This document shows, one piece after another, positions 1,952 to 41,313 of a stretch of DNA of 42,643 nt (the stretch's first letter is position 1; each line of letters starts with the position of its first letter). The notes below the pieces were generated by a model. It did not search any database and was not told the origin of the DNA. It saw only the letters and a program-made list of their open reading frames with translations. Where the stretch lies: the UHGV virus genome UHGV-1882081; one strand, 5' to 3'. The DNA comes from a virus. A program made the translations under genes and the position numbers.

Positions 1952-2254
1952 CTACGATGCAAGAATCCATACCAATAAGCATCCGATAATTGGGAAAGAA
2001 AAATCCAATAGACTTCCCACATCCCACACGCGCGGATCAAAACCGCCCCACCACGGCATATTCATACGCTTGCCGTGCCCGAACATTTCAATCCAGCGAT
2101 ATTCTGCCTGGGTGTGTTCACGCGCAATGAAGAACGTACAACCAGCTATCGCACCGTAAACCCAGTTTCCGGTAAAAAGACCAACCAGAACTTGTGCGAC
2201 AACAGCGCAAAGTGCGTGAAGAATTGGTGTTATATCAACTTCTATATTCATCAT
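1952..2254 (-). CDS. hypothetical small membrane protein (two hydrophobic segments) between tailspike gene and attR
   Basis: 100-aa ORF with hydrophobic stretches ILHALCAVVAQVLVGLFTGNWVYGAIAGCTFFIA and FSFPIIGCLLVWILAS; occupies the position of O-antigen conversion genes in P22-like phages; no homolog recognised. Confidence 0.4.
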   Translation of the reverse strand: MMNIEVDITPILHALCAVVAQVLVGLFTGNWVYGAIAGCTFFIAREHTQAEYRWIEMFGHGKRMNMPWWGGFDPRVWDVGSLLDFSFPIIGCLLVWILAS

Positions 2255-2330
2255 AAATAACTCATTCCATTTTCACAAATAAGCCGCCAACAAGAAGACG
2301 GCATTAACATTAAAATAATTATATATGATG

Positions 2331-4322
2331 CTATTCCTCAATACCTAACCTGCTTGAAACCTCCGGCATAACAGTAACCTGAAGGGTTTTTGATGAATCT
2401 GTGTTTTTAATTGCTATGCTTATATTGTCAGAAGTGCTGTTATTGTTTGACACTGTTATAGAGTTTGCATCCACCCCGAGTTTCGAATAAGCATCAGCAA
2501 AACTAAGACCAACACTTCCACCAACAACTCTATATGAACCATCAATTCTGAATGACGATATATTGTTATTGCTAACATCTCTAATTAGAACCCATATAGA
2601 AACACCCCTGAAAACAAGGCTTGCCCCTGATGGTATTTGAAGTGATACAGTTCCTGTGGAACCCGGGGGGATACTGCCAGTATATTTAGTTCCGTGCAGA
2701 TATTTCCCCGGTAGATCTAAATACGATGTATCTGGCTGCAATAAATTATGTATATGTCTGCTATCTATGCTTCCAGACAGAACCATAGAATCATTTCCAT
2801 ATTCAATTATCCTTCCACCATCGTTACTTATTGTAAGTAATCCTTTGTTTCCTTTATTGTTTCTAACAGTTATATCAGAAGAATCCAGGCGGACAATTGA
2901 TATATTTTTTTCTGTTCCATGACAATAATTTGATGAAATTTCACCTGTAACAAGTGACGTACATAAAATGTCTGAACTTCCATCACTGTCGCCAGTAATA
3001 GTGTTACAGGAAATTAATGCACCATATACCAGACCTGTCGGAGATTCTCCAAATTGCTCTATAGTAATCCGTTTTGTGGTATTTGCTGATATGGTTATAT
3101 TATGAACATCGTCAGTTTGCGATGTTACTTTGATCCTTGATGAAACGGTATTTCCAGAAATAGTAACATTACTTGTATCATCCACCCATAAATATGACGA
3201 AAACGTATTACATGATATGACTGAGTTACTCACCATTGAGTTCTCAAGCTCACATGAACCATAGCTATTGTTATGGTCATAATTTCCTATAATCCTTACA
3301 AATCCATTCTGGTTAATGAAGTTGTATGATGTTGCATTTTGTCCGCCATAAGTTGAGTTATGCGATGTTTCAGCATTTGTAACGCCTATATGTTGAAAAT
3401 GACCGGCATTTACAGAATCAGGAGCAACTGATGTACACCCTATTATTTTTGTATTTTTGACAGTTCTTGAATTAGGGTCATTCTCCAAATAATAGTTTTT
3501 TGCAACAAATGCCGTAGAGTAAAAGAAACCTTCAAATCTATTAAATAAAATCTGAATATCGTCATAATCTCTTTGGTCTTCATTTGCATAGCAATAAAAT
3601 GCTCTTGAAGACTCGGAGTAATCCTTGCATTTCTGAACACCAGATAAAAGTGATCGTATTCTGCTAGATTTTATTCTAAATCCGTTGTGAATTAACGTTG
3701 CATCACCAACCAATGTTATTGGCTTAAGCAATTCAACCTTATCAAAAACAAATTCACCACCATAAAATCCAAGTATAGCCCCTTCTGGTACTGCATTAAT
3801 AGCATTTTGAATTGCTACAGTATCATCTGTTATGCCGTCTCCTTTTGCACCAAAATCACTAACACTAATGTGCTCGGCATTTTTTTGATGCTGCGTCCTT
3901 CTTATTGACAAGGTGAATGGTTGTTTTACTGCTATTAATGCATCTCCAAGATCATCACCTGAACTTGCTAACTCCTGCCTTAACTGATCCGGGTCATACT
4001 TCAGCACATTTGGAAAATAGAACTGCTGCGCACCATACGCATCATAAACAGCCATAGAATGGCCTTGCACAGTTACGAACTTGGCAATCTGTCCGTTATA
4101 TACCGGATATCCAGCAGCGTTAATGATGATTGGCTGTTCAACAGGAACGTGAGAGGCGTCTTCGTTCTCCACATAAACCTGAATCTGGTTTTCAGGGTTT
4201 ACCGGGTCAGTGTCAATTTTACCGATATAAATTTTGCCATTGGCTACGGCTTTAAAAGAACGAGCCATAGTGAAGAGTTGCGAAGGCATCGATACGATCA
4301 CATTGGCTGTAATGTCTGTCAT
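2331..4322 (-). CDS. tailspike protein: P22/HK620-like N-terminal head-binding domain fused to a right-handed beta-helix polysaccharide depolymerase domain
   Basis: N-terminus [55 protein letters not shown]... matches P22 gp9/HK620 tailspike head-binding domain; downstream [19 protein letters not shown] is the pectate-lyase-3-type motif of depolymerases. The 3' two-thirds is markedly AT-rich. Confidence 0.9.
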
Positions 4323-4380
4323 TTAATTTGCTCCAGATACAAGGAATCGCCGAAGCATGGCTACGGTGAATTTTGGGCAT

Positions 4381-5669: not shown

Positions 5670-5921
5670 ATGTCTGATCGTAAGTACAAAAACCCTCAAG
5701 TGAATCTGAGGCTTCCTGTAGAGATAAAGGAACGTCTTATTGAGCTGGCTGAGGCTAATTCTCGTTCATTAAATGCTGAGATGGTAGCAGCACTTGAGGC
5801 ATGGACTGAAAAAAATAAACATATTCAAGCACTAGATATTGCAACTATAGCATCGCGGTTGATAGAGCTTGAGCATGAGGTTGAGAAGTTAAAATGTATG
5901 CATGGCAACGGTGAAAAATGA
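5670..5921 (+). CDS. mnt: Mnt-like ribbon-helix-helix repressor (maintenance of lysogeny)
   Basis: 83-aa ORF, same length as P22 Mnt, N-terminal RHH pattern NLRLPVEIKERLIELAEANSRSLNAEMVAAL; divergent from arc-ant. Confidence 0.75.
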   Translation: MSDRKYKNPQVNLRLPVEIKERLIELAEANSRSLNAEMVAALEAWTEKNKHIQALDIATIASRLIELEHEVEKLKCMHGNGEK

Positions 5922-6232
5922 AACGCATCGCTATTTTGTTAATATTGTTCTTCTCTACAATAGTTTGCGCCAAACAAAAATCAGATAATGGCGATCTTAA
6001 AGGCCTGCAAGAACTCATGATAACTTCGAAATTTGCTGGCATGTGCGGCACAATCAAACAAATGGCAACATTTCAAGAATCAACAAAAATGCCTGGCGGA
6101 GATGAGTTCTTACAGCGTTTTCTGACCACAGAGCAAGCAAGACTTGGAATGAATCCACAGGAGTTTCTTGAAGCATGCCAGAAGTCAATTTCAGCTTATA
6201 CCAATTATTACAATCTAACTTCTGATAAATAA
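5918..6232 (+). CDS. hypothetical secreted protein (cleavable signal peptide), moron
   Basis: 104-aa ORF MKRIAILLILFFSTIVCAKQ...; start overlaps the mnt stop (ATGA); AT-rich. Confidence 0.6.
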   Translation: MKRIAILLILFFSTIVCAKQKSDNGDLKGLQELMITSKFAGMCGTIKQMATFQESTKMPGGDEFLQRFLTTEQARLGMNPQEFLEACQKSISAYTNYYNLTSDK

Positions 6233-6257: not shown

Positions 6258-6743
6258 ATGAAAAAATCACTATTAATTATCCCGCTTCTGCTGGCTGGAT
6301 GCGCAAAAGTAAGTGACTACCAAGCAAGTTGCGAACAACGCTATCCAAAGCTTAGTGATATGGCTAATTGCCTTGATGCCAGCGTGAAGAACGACTCACG
6401 CATGGCATCAGCACCAACACCTAAGCTGTATGTCCTTGCTGCGAAGATGCTCGGGCAAGGTGTCGATGAAGGCAAGATAAGTGACGCACAGGCAAGACTT
6501 GAGCTTCAGAATCTTTATGTTCAATTACAAAGCCAAGAACAAGCCCAACAAATAGCGCAAAGCCAAGCATTCCAGCAGGCTTTATTGAATTATCAGGCTG
6601 TAAACACAATGCAAGCGATCGAGCAAAAAGCGCGCCAGCCTGTTATAACTCAACCTTACCCAACACGCGTTGACACATATACAAACTGCAATTCAGGATT
6701 TGGAAACACCGTCACATGCAACAGTAGCAGCAACATTAGATAA
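6258..6743 (+). CDS. hypothetical lipoprotein (lipobox LLAGC), Gln-rich, moron
   Basis: 161-aa ORF MKKSLLIIPLLLAGCAKVSDY...; signal peptidase II lipobox; Q-rich central segment; ends 3 bp before the convergent gp16 stop. Confidence 0.6.
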   Translation: MKKSLLIIPLLLAGCAKVSDYQASCEQRYPKLSDMANCLDASVKNDSRMASAPTPKLYVLAAKMLGQGVDEGKISDAQARLELQNLYVQLQSQEQAQQIAQSQAFQQALLNYQAVNTMQAIEQKARQPVITQPYPTRVDTYTNCNSGFGNTVTCNSSSNIR

Positions 6744-31280: not shown

Positions 31281-31586
31281 ATGGTAACCATTGTCTGGAA
31301 AGAATCCAAAGGTACGGCAAAAAGCCGCTACAAAGCTCGCAGAGCAGAACTTATTGCCGAGCGACGCAGTAATGAAGCACTGGCGCGAAAAATTGCGCTA
31401 AAGCTCTCTGGTTGCGTCAGAGCAGACAAAGCAGCATCACTAGGAAGCCTTTTCTGCAAGAAGAAAGAAGAAGTCGTTCGAAAAAATAGAAGTATTTATT
31501 ACAAAGATTCAAACCCGTTAGGAAACAAAATACATGCAGTCCAAAAAATAAAATTGTACAGTAAACTACCGTACGGTGCTTATTGA
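31281..31586 (+). CDS. N-like antiterminator with arginine-rich motif
   Basis: GGAGA RBS; MVTIVWKESKGTAKSRYKARRAELIAERRSNEALARKIALK...; first gene after pL/nutL. Confidence 0.65.
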   Translation: MVTIVWKESKGTAKSRYKARRAELIAERRSNEALARKIALKLSGCVRADKAASLGSLFCKKKEEVVRKNRSIYYKDSNPLGNKIHAVQKIKLYSKLPYGAY

Positions 31587-31723
31587 GTATGCTTATGGTG
31601 AAAAAGACTATTTATGTTAATCCTGACCGCGGACAAAACAGAAAAGTATCTGATAGAGGTCTTACATCTCGAGACAGGAGGAGAATAGCGAGATGGGAAA
31701 AAAGGATAGCATATGCATTAAAA
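31583..31723 (+). CDS. hypothetical protein, N-terminal part (truncated by N-run)
   Basis: ORF MSMLMVKKTIYVNPDRGQNRKVSDRGLTSRDRRRIARWEKRIAYALK... runs into the gap. Confidence 0.35.
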
Positions 31724-31805
31724 NNNNNNNNNNNNNNNNNNNNNNNNNNNNNNNNNNNNNNNNNNNNNNNNNNNNNNNNNNNNNNNNNNNNNNNNNNNNN
31801 NNNNN
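31724..31805. other. run of 82 N (assembly gap or masked sequence)
   Basis: Literal n characters. Confidence 0.95.
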
Positions 31806-32001
31806 AACACCCGGATTTAATGCTATAGATGACGGTCCTGAATATAAGATTAATGAAGAACCAATGGACAAAGTTGACAAAGCATTAGCAACACCATTTC
31901 CTCGCGATGTCGAAAAAATTGAAGATGAAAAATATGAGGATGTAATGCACAGAGTTGTTAATCACGCTCACCAACGAAATCCAAATAAAAAATGGTCATA
32001 G
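31806..32001 (+). CDS. hypothetical protein, C-terminal part (5' end in N-run)
   Basis: Open frame ...TPGFNAIDDGPEYKINEEPMDKVDKALATPFPRDVEKIEDEKYEDVMHRVVNHAHQRNPNKKWS ending just before a terminator hairpin; may be the same gene as 31583-31723. Confidence 0.35.
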
Positions 32002-32022
32002 CCCACTTCGGTGGGTTTTTTA
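32001..32022 (+). terminator. rho-independent terminator-like hairpin
   Basis: gcccac-ttcg-gtggg followed by ttttttatt. Confidence 0.6.
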
Positions 32023-32134
32023 TTGTCTGAACAAACCTAATTTACTACCGCAAGCCACGCAGTGAAATGGGTGTGACTTGTGTTGGTCGACAGAAAATGA
32101 AATTAGGTAGCAAACCACTTATTTGAGGTGAGAT

Positions 32135-32221
32135 ATGGAAGAAGAATTTGAAGAGTTCGAAGAGCATCCGCAGGATGTGATGGAACAATACCAGGACTAT
32201 CCGTATGACTACGACTATTGA
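32135..32221 (+). CDS. possible very acidic 28-aa ORF overlapping the ral start
   Basis: GAGGTGA RBS; MEEEFEEFEEHPQDVMEQYQDYPYDYDY; coding status speculative. Confidence 0.25.
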   Translation: MEEEFEEFEEHPQDVMEQYQDYPYDYDY

Positions 32222-32405
32222 TACAAATCAATGGTGTGGACAATTCAACCGATGCAATGGATGCAAGCTGCAATCGGAATGCATGGTTAAGCCTGAAGAA
32301 ATGTTTCCTGTAATGGAGGATGGGAAATATGTCGATAAATGGGCAATACGAACTACGGCAATGATTGCCAGAGAACTTGGTAAACAGAATAACAAGGCTG
32401 CCTGA
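32205..32405 (+). CDS. ral: Ral, restriction alleviation protein (lambda-type)
   Basis: 66-aa ORF MTTTIDTNQWCGQFNRCNGCKLQSECMVKPEEMFPVMEDGKYVDKWAIRTTAMIARELGKQNNKAA matches lambda Ral. Confidence 0.9.
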   Translation: MTTTIDTNQWCGQFNRCNGCKLQSECMVKPEEMFPVMEDGKYVDKWAIRTTAMIARELGKQNNKAA

Positions 32406-32432
32406 TGGTGGCCTTTATTTTTAAGGTGCTAT

Positions 32433-32675
32433 ATGAAAATTAAAACCATGGGCGCAAGCCCATTAAGCGGTCGTATTTTTCAAGGAACATTAAACACTGA
32501 AAAAGGAATGTGGGTAGGAAAGAAAGAAGATGTCACCGAACAGGCAGTTAAGGCAGTAGCTGAACACCTGATGATAAAAGACCAGAAATACGCATACGAA
32601 ACGAAGGATGGCAAATGGCTGATAATAAGCCATCAACTGGTTGATAAATTACCAGAAGATTTTATTGCTGATTAA
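32433..32675 (+). CDS. hypothetical protein
   Basis: 80-aa ORF MKIKTMGASPLSGRIFQGTLNTEKGMWVGKKEDVTEQ...; no recognised homolog. Confidence 0.45.
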   Translation: MKIKTMGASPLSGRIFQGTLNTEKGMWVGKKEDVTEQAVKAVAEHLMIKDQKYAYETKDGKWLIISHQLVDKLPEDFIAD

Positions 32676-32801
32676 AATTTTTTTGGCATAAACAACAGAA
32701 TAAACACTGCACTGTGTATTCATTCCAACGAGTGAATACACGGAGCAATGTCGCTCGTAACTAAACAGGAGCTGACTTGTTCTGATTATTGGAAATCTTC
32801 T

Positions 32802-32830
32802 TTGCCCTCCAGTGTGAGGGCAATTTTTTT
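32802..32830 (+). terminator. rho-independent terminator-like hairpin in the early-left operon
   Basis: ttgccctc-cagtgt-gagggcaa followed by ttttttt; preceded by a strong 12-bp hairpin at 32716-32743. Confidence 0.6.
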
Positions 32831-32839
32831 GACGGAGGA

Positions 32840-32986
32840 ATGATGGAAATTACAGATATTCTGGTTAATCCAGATAATTACGACCAATTCAATATCTCTA
32901 CTCAATCAGTTGATTTGGGATGTGCAACTGTCAGCGCATGGCTACTTAATGGTAAACAGTTGGATAAATGCCTTATGCACATATGA
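32840..32986 (+). CDS. possible small ORF (48 aa)
   Basis: GGAGG RBS then ATGATG; MMEITDILVNPDNYDQFNISTQSVDLGCATVSAWLLNGKQLDKCLMHI; the longer ORF-track version starts inside the terminator. Confidence 0.3.
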   Translation: MMEITDILVNPDNYDQFNISTQSVDLGCATVSAWLLNGKQLDKCLMHI

Positions 32987-33258
32987 CGGTTAACAGCTTC
33001 CTTGCAGAAAAAACACACTGGCAAGATGCTGGAGGGAAATATTCTGGATGGCTTGAAAGCATGGGGTTTGAATATCAACCTGATGAAGGTTGGTGGAGCC
33101 TTATAGCTGTAACGCCTGAGACAATAGAATGCTTCGTTAAATACTCAAACGACGATGACTATAAAAACCAGGTAGATTCTGCGATAGAAAGATATAAAAG
33201 AAAATCATTCAGCCACGAAATATCATCAGTTCTTGATTTCATAGAAGTCTTCAAATAA
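32968..33258 (+). CDS. hypothetical protein
   Basis: 96-aa ORF (possibly starting at MTVNSF...); acidic, AT-rich; no recognised homolog. Confidence 0.4.
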   Translation: MPYAHMTVNSFLAEKTHWQDAGGKYSGWLESMGFEYQPDEGWWSLIAVTPETIECFVKYSNDDDYKNQVDSAIERYKRKSFSHEISSVLDFIEVFK

Positions 33259-33341
33259 GCCGCTAAGCGCGGCTTTACCGCATACCAATAATGCTTCACC
33301 AGAGGCATTTTCGTTATGCAATCAAACAGAAGGAGCATCCT

Positions 33342-33512
33342 ATGCAACAGTTCGCTATTGCAGGGGCGGCATCGGTTCGCCCTTTCAACCCGATTTTATC
33401 GGTGCAGCATTCACGAAAAAATATTTTAACCGGAGCAGACTTTAAACAACCAAGAATGAAAAGTTTGCTAGAAAAGCTTTGGGATATTTTGAAACAACAA
33501 GGCCGTCCATGA
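33342..33512 (+). CDS. CIII-like protein (FtsH/HflB inhibitor family)
   Basis: GGAG RBS; MQQFAIAGAASVRPFNPILSVQHSRKNILTGADFKQPRMKSLLEKLWDILKQQGRP resembles lambda CIII (MQYAIAG..., amphipathic helix ...LLERL...). Confidence 0.6.
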   Translation: MQQFAIAGAASVRPFNPILSVQHSRKNILTGADFKQPRMKSLLEKLWDILKQQGRP

Positions 33513-39958: not shown

Positions 39959-40177
39959 ATGTACTTGACTCTTCAGGAGTGGAACGCTCGCCAGCGACGC
40001 CCAAGAAGCCTTGAAACAGTTCGTCGATGGGTGCGCGAATGCAGGATATTCCCTCCTCCGGTTAAGGATGGAAGAGAGTATCTGTTCCACGAATCAGCGG
40101 TAAAGGTTGACTTAAATCGACCAATAACAGGTAGCCTTTTGAAGAGGATCAGAAATGGGAAGAAGGCGAAGTCATGA
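39959..40177 (+). CDS. xis: excisionase Xis (lambda-type)
   Basis: 72-aa ORF MYLTLQEWNARQRRPRSLETVRRWVRECRIFPPPVKDGREYLFHESAVKVDLNRPITGSLLKRIRNGKKAKS matches lambda Xis; overlaps int start. Confidence 0.95.
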   Translation: MYLTLQEWNARQRRPRSLETVRRWVRECRIFPPPVKDGREYLFHESAVKVDLNRPITGSLLKRIRNGKKAKS

Positions 40178-41225
40178 GCGCCGGGATTTACCCCCTAACC
40201 TTTATATAAGAAACAATGGATATTACTGCTACAGGGACCCAAGGACGGGTAAAGAGTTTGGATTAGGCCGAGACAGGAGGATAGCAATCACTGAAGCAAT
40301 ACAGGCCAACATTGAGTTATTTTCAGGACACAAACACAAGCCTCTGACAGCGAGAATCAACAGTGATAATTCTGTTACGTTACATTCATGGCTTGATCGC
40401 TACGAAAAAATCCTCGCCAGCAGAGGAATCAAGCAGAAGACACTTATAAATTACATGAGCAAAATTAAAGCAATAAGGAGGGGTCTGCCTGATGCTCCAC
40501 TTGAAGACATCACCACAAAAGAAATTGCGGCAATGCTCAATGGATACATAGACGAGGGCAAGGCGGCGTCAGCCAAGTTAATCAGATCAACACTGAGCGA
40601 TGCATTCCGAGAGGCAATAGCTGAAGGACATATAACAATAAACCCGGTCGCTGCCACTCGCGCAGCAAAATCAGAGGTAAGGAGATCAAGACTTACGGCT
40701 GACGAATACCTGAAAATTTATCAAGCAGCAGAATCATCACCATGTTGGCTTAGACTTGCAATGGAACTGGCTGTTGTTACCGGGCAGCGTGTTGGTGATT
40801 TATGCGAAATGAAGTGGTCTGATATCGTAGATGGCTATCTTTATGTCGAGCAAAGCAAAACCGGCGTAAAAATTGCCATCCCAACAACATTGCATGTTGA
40901 TGCTCTTGGGATATCAATGAAGGAAACACTTGATAAATGCAAAGAGATTCTTGGCGGAGAAACCATAATTGCATCTACTCGTCGTGAACCGCTTTCATCC
41001 GGCACAGTATCAAGGTATTTTATGCGCGCACGAAAAGCATCAGGTCTTTCCTTCGAAGGGGATCCGCCTACCTTTCACGAGTTGCGCAGCTTGTCTGCAA
41101 GACTCTATGAGAAGCAGATAAGCGATAAGTTTGCTCAACATCTTCTCGGGCATAAGTCGGACACCATGGCATCACAGTATCGTGATGACAGAGGCAGGGA
41201 GTGGGACAAAATTGAAATCAAATAA
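40155..41225 (+). CDS. int: integrase Int (lambda tyrosine recombinase)
   Basis: 356-aa ORF MGRRRSHERRDLPPNLYIRNNGYYCYRDPRTGKEFGLGRDRRIAITEAIQANIELFSGHKH... matches lambda Int in sequence and length. Confidence 0.97.
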   Translation: MGRRRSHERRDLPPNLYIRNNGYYCYRDPRTGKEFGLGRDRRIAITEAIQANIELFSGHKHKPLTARINSDNSVTLHSWLDRYEKILASRGIKQKTLINYMSKIKAIRRGLPDAPLEDITTKEIAAMLNGYIDEGKAASAKLIRSTLSDAFREAIAEGHITINPVAATRAAKSEVRRSRLTADEYLKIYQAAESSPCWLRLAMELAVVTGQRVGDLCEMKWSDIVDGYLYVEQSKTGVKIAIPTTLHVDALGISMKETLDKCKEILGGETIIASTRREPLSSGTVSRYFMRARKASGLSFEGDPPTFHELRSLSARLYEKQISDKFAQHLLGHKSDTMASQYRDDRGREWDKIEIK

Positions 41226-41298: not shown

Positions 41299-41313
41299 TT
41301 AGTATAAAAAAGC
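41299..41313. repeat. 15-bp lambda att core, prophage/host junction (attL, gal side)
   Basis: ttagtataaaaaagc identical to 1650-1664; followed by aggc (attB arm GCCTGCTTTTTTATACTAA in reverse complement). Confidence 0.9.

Follow-up and report, generated by a model that had tools for sequence, protein, structure and literature searches.

The window, that is, the whole stretch of 42,643 nucleotides of the virus genome UHGV-1882081 that was analysed, contains a complete P22-like prophage of ~39.7 kb. The prophage is delimited by two exact copies of the lambda att core, GCTTTTTTATACTAA, at positions 1650–1664 and 41299–41313, where none would be expected by chance, and has no tRNA gene between them. 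A lambda-type integrase with a PF09003 arm-binding domain is encoded at 40155–41225 on the plus strand, and on the host side the prophage is flanked by ybhB and by a ybhC-like gene. Together with this integrase and the lambda att core, the prophage has a virion module of the P22-like type. The virion genes include those for the portal, the coat, a gp10-like protein and the ejection (injectosome) proteins, and the tailspike gene is directly preceded by genes for a P22-type Ant (PF10547/PF10548) and an Arc-like protein. With these neighbours, the tailspike gene occupies the canonical position of a P22-like genome, at the end of the P22-type virion module and beside the ant/arc (immI) region. The genes of the P22 gp9 and HK620 tailspikes likewise adjoin the ant/arc/mnt region, and Sf6 gp14 has the same position in its P22-like genome.

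The interval from the Arc-like gene to the genes for the ejection proteins contains two small plus-strand ORFs with signal-peptide-like N-termini, at the position of sieA in P22. The first (5918–6232) matches phrog_19844, and the second (6258–6743) matches phrog_6067 and displays a lipobox-like LLAGC sequence. At its left end (1–~975, minus strand) the window starts inside a gene for an InsQ/TnpB-family RNA-guided endonuclease. In related E. coli genomes this gene is flanked by bioA and ybhB, and the plus-strand ORF of 275 aa at 1–828 is probably its antisense shadow.

The tailspike is encoded by one intact ORF of 663 codons plus stop on the minus strand (2331–4322), and is matched over its full length by phrog_20231, a phage 'tail protein' family (E=2.1e-255, residues 1–663 against positions 1–691 of the 691-position profile). 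The range given for it in an earlier note on this DNA, 2331–3950, lies within this one real gene and covers just its 3′ part, codons ~125–663. Residues 1–113 (3984–4322, minus strand) form the head-binding domain, by which the spike is attached to the virion. This domain is recognized by PF09008 (E=2.9e-65, 218 bits against a Pfam cutoff of 24) and by the N-termini of the Sf6 and P22 tailspikes in the PDB, which bears out the P22-type domain that the note had seen in the first ~115 residues. The domain is followed by a linker or neck of 33 residues (~118–150; 3873–3971, minus strand), one of two putative recombination joints, which resembles the neck of Sf6 in the PDB sequence match. Residues 151–520 (2763–3872, minus strand) are modelled by AlphaFold2 (AF2) as a right-handed parallel β-helix, the putative catalytic and receptor-binding core. 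The C-terminal part (residues 521–663; 2334–2762, minus strand) consists of a low-confidence connector, which surrounds a conserved LDLPGKY motif, and a β-sandwich spanning residues 547–655. The same architecture, with a PF09008 anchor, a trimeric β-helix as the receptor domain and a C-terminal domain, is known from P22 gp9 and the HK620 tailspike.

The best solved relative of the protein is the endorhamnosidase Sf6 gp14 (PDB code 7sg7; residues 1–218, E=2e-82), followed by the P22 tailspike entries. The head-binding domain is ~90% identical to that of Sf6 gp14 (7sg7, 2vbk), and the homology continues through the linker and the cap up to residue ~218. Beyond this point there is no sequence similarity, the general β-helix fold alone is common to both proteins, and the catalytic residues of Sf6 cannot be mapped. 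The switch after residue ~115 described in the earlier note is therefore not a clean break, since the Sf6 homology runs across it. At the start of the helix, PF12708 (Pect-lyase_RHGA_epim) matches residues 152–209 with 43.3 bits against a Pfam cutoff of 27, in agreement with the pectate-lyase-3 motif recognized there before. The match spans only positions 2–63 of the 213-position profile, which correspond to the N-terminal cap and the first rungs, and encloses the cap motif that begins at residue 157. Asn, Ser and Thr together make up 30% of residues 151–663 versus 16% of the head-binding domain, as the description of an Asn/Ser/Thr-rich receptor domain had implied, and Ile amounts to 9% of the receptor domain.

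On its 3′ side, the tailspike cassette is bordered by a conserved hydrophobic ORF of 100 residues (1952–2254, minus strand; phrog_1443). In P22-like and epsilon15-like phages the homologues of this ORF come after a tailspike gene, and in lambda-like phages after a tail-fibre gene. The ORF has no match in Pfam or NCBIfam and could encode an exclusion or receptor-modifying factor. A promoter-like site of its own at 2278–2250 and terminator-like hairpins at 2302–2283 and 1886–1866 give it a moron-like layout.

An AF2 model of the monomer was computed from an alignment of 26 sequences. The β-helix (residues 151–520) was modelled with pLDDT values mostly above 90, and the β-sandwich (residues 547–655) with values of ~90; the N-terminus is poor because few of the aligned sequences cover it. 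The model thus predicts the C-terminal right-handed parallel β-helix that is characteristic of a P22-like tailspike. The β-sandwich part is missing from the homologues in Arthrobacter phages, which consist of the β-helix only. A Foldseek search of the PDB returned generic β-helix matches only, and the unmodelled N-terminus depressed their TM-scores. In BFVD, the closest structures were St11Ph5 gp66, the best match, and a minor tail protein of an Arthrobacter phage, both of which are members of the module family.

Two tail protein genes match nucleotides 2000–3870 at 98% identity, one from the epsilon15-like phage phiv142-3 (Orf6) and the other from an epsilon15-like prophage of E. coli CE0007a; the N-terminal ~195 residues of their products are unrelated to the head-binding domain. 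In phiv142-3 Orf6 (QGF19612.1, the 'putative tail fiber protein' of a Uetakevirus) identity across the module, counted from residue ~151 to the end of the protein, is 96% for the amino acids and 98% for the DNA, and the likeness includes the downstream small ORF. The same module likeness is shared by proteins of epsilon15-like E. coli prophages that RefSeq names 'glycosyl hydrolase family 28-related protein'. These epsilon15-type proteins are 709–710 residues long and carry an epsilon15-type anchor and a different linker at residues 118–150, whereas the module studied here stands behind a P22 head-binding domain. In a third arrangement, the metagenomic protein P0102 combines a TSP1/Gp66-type anchor (PF18668) with the same module at 98% identity. 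The receptor module is thus found at 96–99% identity behind three different N-terminal anchors, of the P22, epsilon15 and TSP1/Gp66 types. Homologues with 40–60% identity sit on four more anchors, namely those of T7 fibres (PF03906), tail-collar fibres (PF12571), Gamaleyavirus gp66 and Vectrevirus. One of them is St11Ph5 gp66 (ATS92541.1, Gamaleyavirus), a branched-fibre protein of 945 residues from a lytic N4-like phage, whose C-terminal ~565 residues correspond to the entire module, β-sandwich included, at 46% identity.

Two other P22-like prophages at the same lambda site, in strains A3 and 04-00955, have nucleotides 3968–4369 (head-binding domain) in common with the window at 83–93% identity, together with downstream sequence, and carry different, larger receptor domains behind this conserved anchor. 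The presence of one module on three anchors at near identity, and of other C-termini in same-site prophages, strongly supports the horizontal gain of the receptor module by domain swap that the earlier note had proposed. P22-like prophages with the same tailspike were also located between dacD and the sbcB side in Ecol_881, LD67-1 and SFAD3; this tailspike is therefore associated with more than one type of integration module, as its copy in the window lies in the lambda site. Copies within the P22-type group differ by 12 synonymous and 2 non-synonymous codons, and 11–13 synonymous and 9–10 non-synonymous differences separate them from the epsilon15-type copies. The differences within the P22-type group are thus mostly synonymous, and the counts show the module to be under purifying selection.

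The joints of the module can be located on both sides. At the 5′ side they differ between anchors: the sequence in common with P0102 begins at residue ~118, and that in common with epsilon15-type proteins at residue ~151, the linker (residues ~118–150) being present in P0102 and absent from the epsilon15-type protein P0113. At the 3′ side the common sequence extends into the 100-residue hydrophobic ORF. The module has moved between unrelated phage chassis, by recombination that would use these conserved flanks, with the head-binding/linker sequence as the 5′ joint and the conserved small ORF as the 3′ joint. Because flanks are conserved on both sides, they would offer a simple route for cassette exchange by homologous recombination, a mechanism that we infer from flanks and joints that are themselves observed. 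The 'boundary sequences' annotated in CUS-3 were considered as a possible known joint and discarded; their position is upstream of the tailspike gene, and they leave the 3′ joint unaccounted for.

For five lysogens, the O-antigen cluster was read from the serogroup names that PGAP gives to wzx and wzy. Three of these strains carry the module behind the P22-type anchor, with 99% identity in DNA: Ecol_881 has an O1 cluster, LD67-1 an O83 cluster and SFAD3 an O2/O50 cluster. The epsilon15-type anchor is found in CE0007a, with a cluster of the O17/O44/O73/O77/O106 family, and in RS571, with an O102 cluster. The host of phiv142-3, DE142, is O2 (PMC7724020), and a published survey lists phiv142-3-type receptor proteins of at least 95% identity in O5, O1, O102 and O51 lysogens, for which its authors proposed a receptor other than the O-antigen (PMC10408124). 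Near-identical copies in at least five unrelated O-antigen clusters argue against a simple specificity for one O serogroup, and the host distribution suggests that the substrate is not a single O-antigen type. Of the reading put forward in the earlier note, the swap itself holds, and the O-antigen or capsule depolymerase with a new receptor specificity stays a hypothesis. Near-identity to a characterised tailspike of known specificity, which the note had regarded as speaking against its reading, was not found; the nearest named protein is phiv142-3 Orf6, which has no known specificity. The published data on orf6 concern growth in serum and under iron limitation and not the receptor: its deletion in the APEC strain DE142 was reported to result in less growth in serum and in iron-limited medium and in less colonisation of chickens (PMC7724020), an unexpected phenotype for a virion protein.

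The module may recognise a glycan common to many E. coli O serogroups, the candidates being ECA, colanic acid, a common capsule or the core, although the probability that we attach to this reading is well short of even. A classical endoglycosidase specific for one O-antigen or for a related group, analogous to those of P22, Sf6 and HK620, is only slightly less probable. O1, O2 and O50 are structurally related O-antigens, and their rhamnans would be an example of such a group; the other serogroups would then have arisen by O-antigen switching of the host after lysogeny. As a rule, the tailspike subtype of a P22-like or epsilon15-like phage follows the O serogroup of its host (PMC10408124). Three hosts of the present module are O1, O2/O50 and O2 (the last from PMC7724020), and the host of fBC-Eco01, whose spike module is 52% identical, is O2:H1 (PMC9825357). 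Furthermore, only ~35 kb separate the prophages of Ecol_881, LD67-1 and SFAD3 from the his-rfb (O-antigen) region; O-switching by recombination is common in that region and could uncouple prophage and serogroup. An O-antigen enzyme is more difficult to reconcile with the near-identical modules in O83, O102 and O17/O44/O73/O77/O106-family strains, and with the O5, O1, O102 and O51 lysogens of the survey (PMC10408124). Phage EC.W1-9, which has a 93%-identical module and was grown on ATCC 25922, also forms spots on ST131, ST648 and ST410 isolates (bioRxiv 10.1101/2024.06.28.601134), although spot tests at the very high titre used are weak evidence. Likewise, mutants resistant to St11Ph5, the phage whose gp66 carries the 46%-identical module, display an unchanged LPS ladder (PMC6393563). 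Beside a conserved receptor other than the O-antigen and an O-antigen enzyme, the remaining weight falls on a capsule or another strain-variable glycan. A link to colanic acid through phrog_8280 ('colanic acid degradation') was considered and rejected, as this match stems mostly from the shared head-binding domain and the literature offered no usable link.

With regard to the chemistry of the module, the PDB was searched by sequence, using the entire protein, a profile of six family members and a core-only profile, and nothing matched outside the head-binding domain and the cap motif. Because the profile of the catalytic core had no PDB match at E≤10, catalytic residues cannot be transferred from a solved enzyme. 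The residues that are invariant in the 26 family members include Q310/H311, N334/F335/I336, E358/E360 and W379/D381/D382. In the AF2 model, the invariant residues are located on the equivalent strand of four successive rungs (309–312, 333–336, 357–360 and 378–381), and this stripe has the modelled geometry of a substrate groove, its surface exposure being judged purely from strand register. Hydrolytic tailspikes (P22, Sf6, HK620) use paired carboxylates one rung apart. The presence of paired carboxylates in the module as in these enzymes favours a glycoside hydrolase, with a lyase as its rival. The module would bind a polysaccharide on the E. coli surface and probably cleave it. The site of cleavage would be the groove lined by Q310/H311, N334–I336, E358/E360 and W379/D381/D382 on the four rungs, and the Glu/Asp pairs would most likely act as the glycoside-hydrolase carboxylates.

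It is unlikely that the module is instead a polysaccharide lyase or epimerase-like enzyme that acts by β-elimination on a uronic-acid glycan such as capsule, colanic acid or ECA. Such enzymes have the N-terminal cap motif in common with the module, and the EC.W1-9 copy is annotated as an 'eliminase' in GenBank. Their catalytic motif YG(F/I)DPH(D/E) is nevertheless absent, with no DPH anywhere in the protein, at E≤10 the core profile retrieves neither a lyase nor an epimerase from the PDB, and the family-invariant residues are the paired carboxylates of hydrolytic tailspikes. The A-module of the mannuronan C5-epimerase AlgE4 (PDB code 2pyg), which is not a phage protein, has a similar fold with 18% identity and differs in the DPH(D/E) motif, which the tailspike lacks.

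Several named families were tested and set aside. Glycoside hydrolase family 28, from which the epsilon15-type copies take their RefSeq name, gave no PF00295 hit at E≤1; the order of its motifs (NTD, DD, GHG, RIK) is not reproduced, as GHG is absent, the sole NTD is found at residue 640 and the order does not fit. For a mannuronan C5-epimerase or alginate lyase of the AlgE/AlgG type, the fold alone is similar, with no DPH in the protein and no PDB match to the core profile. An endosialidase of the CUS-3 or K1F type was rejected because PF12218 reaches 19.1 bits against a cutoff of 26.3, through a GDG motif only, and the fold is a β-helix rather than a propeller. The NCBIfam rhamnogalacturonidase match is below threshold and confined to the cap motif.

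The exchanged module also stands out in base composition. Comparison by blastn with two P22-like prophages at the same attachment site, L004 and L005, places the breakpoints of an exchanged AT-rich block at 2237–3967 (minus strand), which comprises the receptor module, the linker, the terminator-like hairpin at 2302–2283 and the first codons of the small ORF. The GC content is 0.356 in this block versus 0.473 in the remaining prophage. For the segment 2331–3950, GC is 0.360, which is lower than in any other 1620-bp window of the prophage (minimum 0.370, mean 0.476, sd 0.032; z=−3.6), so that the contrast described in the earlier note between AT-rich receptor-domain DNA and the rest of the prophage is confirmed by computation. 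Within the gene, GC3 is 0.25 for residues 116–663 versus 0.46 for residues 1–115. The homologues of the module lie near the GC of their own genomes in St11Ph5 (0.42 vs 0.43), unlike the tailspike gene described here, as well as in fBC-Eco01 (0.49 vs 0.505) and in an Arthrobacter phage (0.61 vs 0.64). The copies in temperate E. coli phages have a GC of 0.36 against surroundings of 0.45–0.476, and one Aeromonas phage copy also stands apart from its surroundings (0.44 vs 0.59 for the genome). As the homologues in lytic phages match their own genomes, the AT-richness is not forced by the protein, and it fits an import from another gene pool. That it should be a mere by-product of an Asn/Ser/Thr/Ile-rich β-helix, with no bearing on horizontal origin, is highly improbable: these residues do favour A/T-rich codons, yet GC3 falls within one and the same gene, homologous modules encode similar proteins at a GC of 0.42, 0.49 and 0.61, and the AT-rich block has its edges exactly at the breakpoints of homology. 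A second stretch of low GC is located in the early region at 31500–33500 on the plus strand, with 0.30 at 31501–32000 and 0.39–0.42 up to 33500.

The exact 663-residue protein is already deposited in NCBI as a hypothetical protein (e.g., EJA8918025.1; 17 contigs), and 'phage tailspike protein' is the name of more than 100 near-identical entries in the databases. The module is carried by 37 of 5426 complete E. coli genomes and, among public assemblies, by hundreds of contigs, and a search of 1.84 billion proteins yields 34 cluster representatives of its family at E≤1e-30. In the complete genomes of E. coli SCZE5, ECJXMCRH7 and XH993 the same tailspike gene is interrupted by an IS1A element, which presumably deprives these prophages of a functional spike. 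The exchange of receptor modules behind conserved anchors is well described in Lederberg- and Uetakeviruses, and the subtype is mentioned in a 2023 survey (PMC10408124). The protein is thus an ordinary modular tailspike of a P22-like E. coli prophage, and the principle of cassette exchange is already established. Taken as a whole, the protein is very probably a P22-like prophage tailspike in which a P22-type anchor is joined to an exchangeable receptor module that putatively cleaves an E. coli polysaccharide.

Tailspike modules set the host range of phages, and serve the retargeting of phages and tailocins and the prediction of serotypes from prophages. The present case provides a worked example of cassette exchange, in which near-identical copies of one module occur on three anchors and each of the two joints is mappable. 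Its narrower value lies in a rare module family with hosts across at least five unrelated O-antigen clusters. If its target is a conserved glycan, the module would become a candidate for a broad-range E. coli adhesin or depolymerase, and would call for caution in the prediction of serotypes from prophage tailspikes. Should the reading of a shared glycan be true, a broad-range module has been passed among temperate and lytic phages, on at least three chassis at 96–99% identity, and would constitute an exception to the rule that the tailspike subtypes of P22-like and epsilon15-like phages predict the O serogroup of the host.
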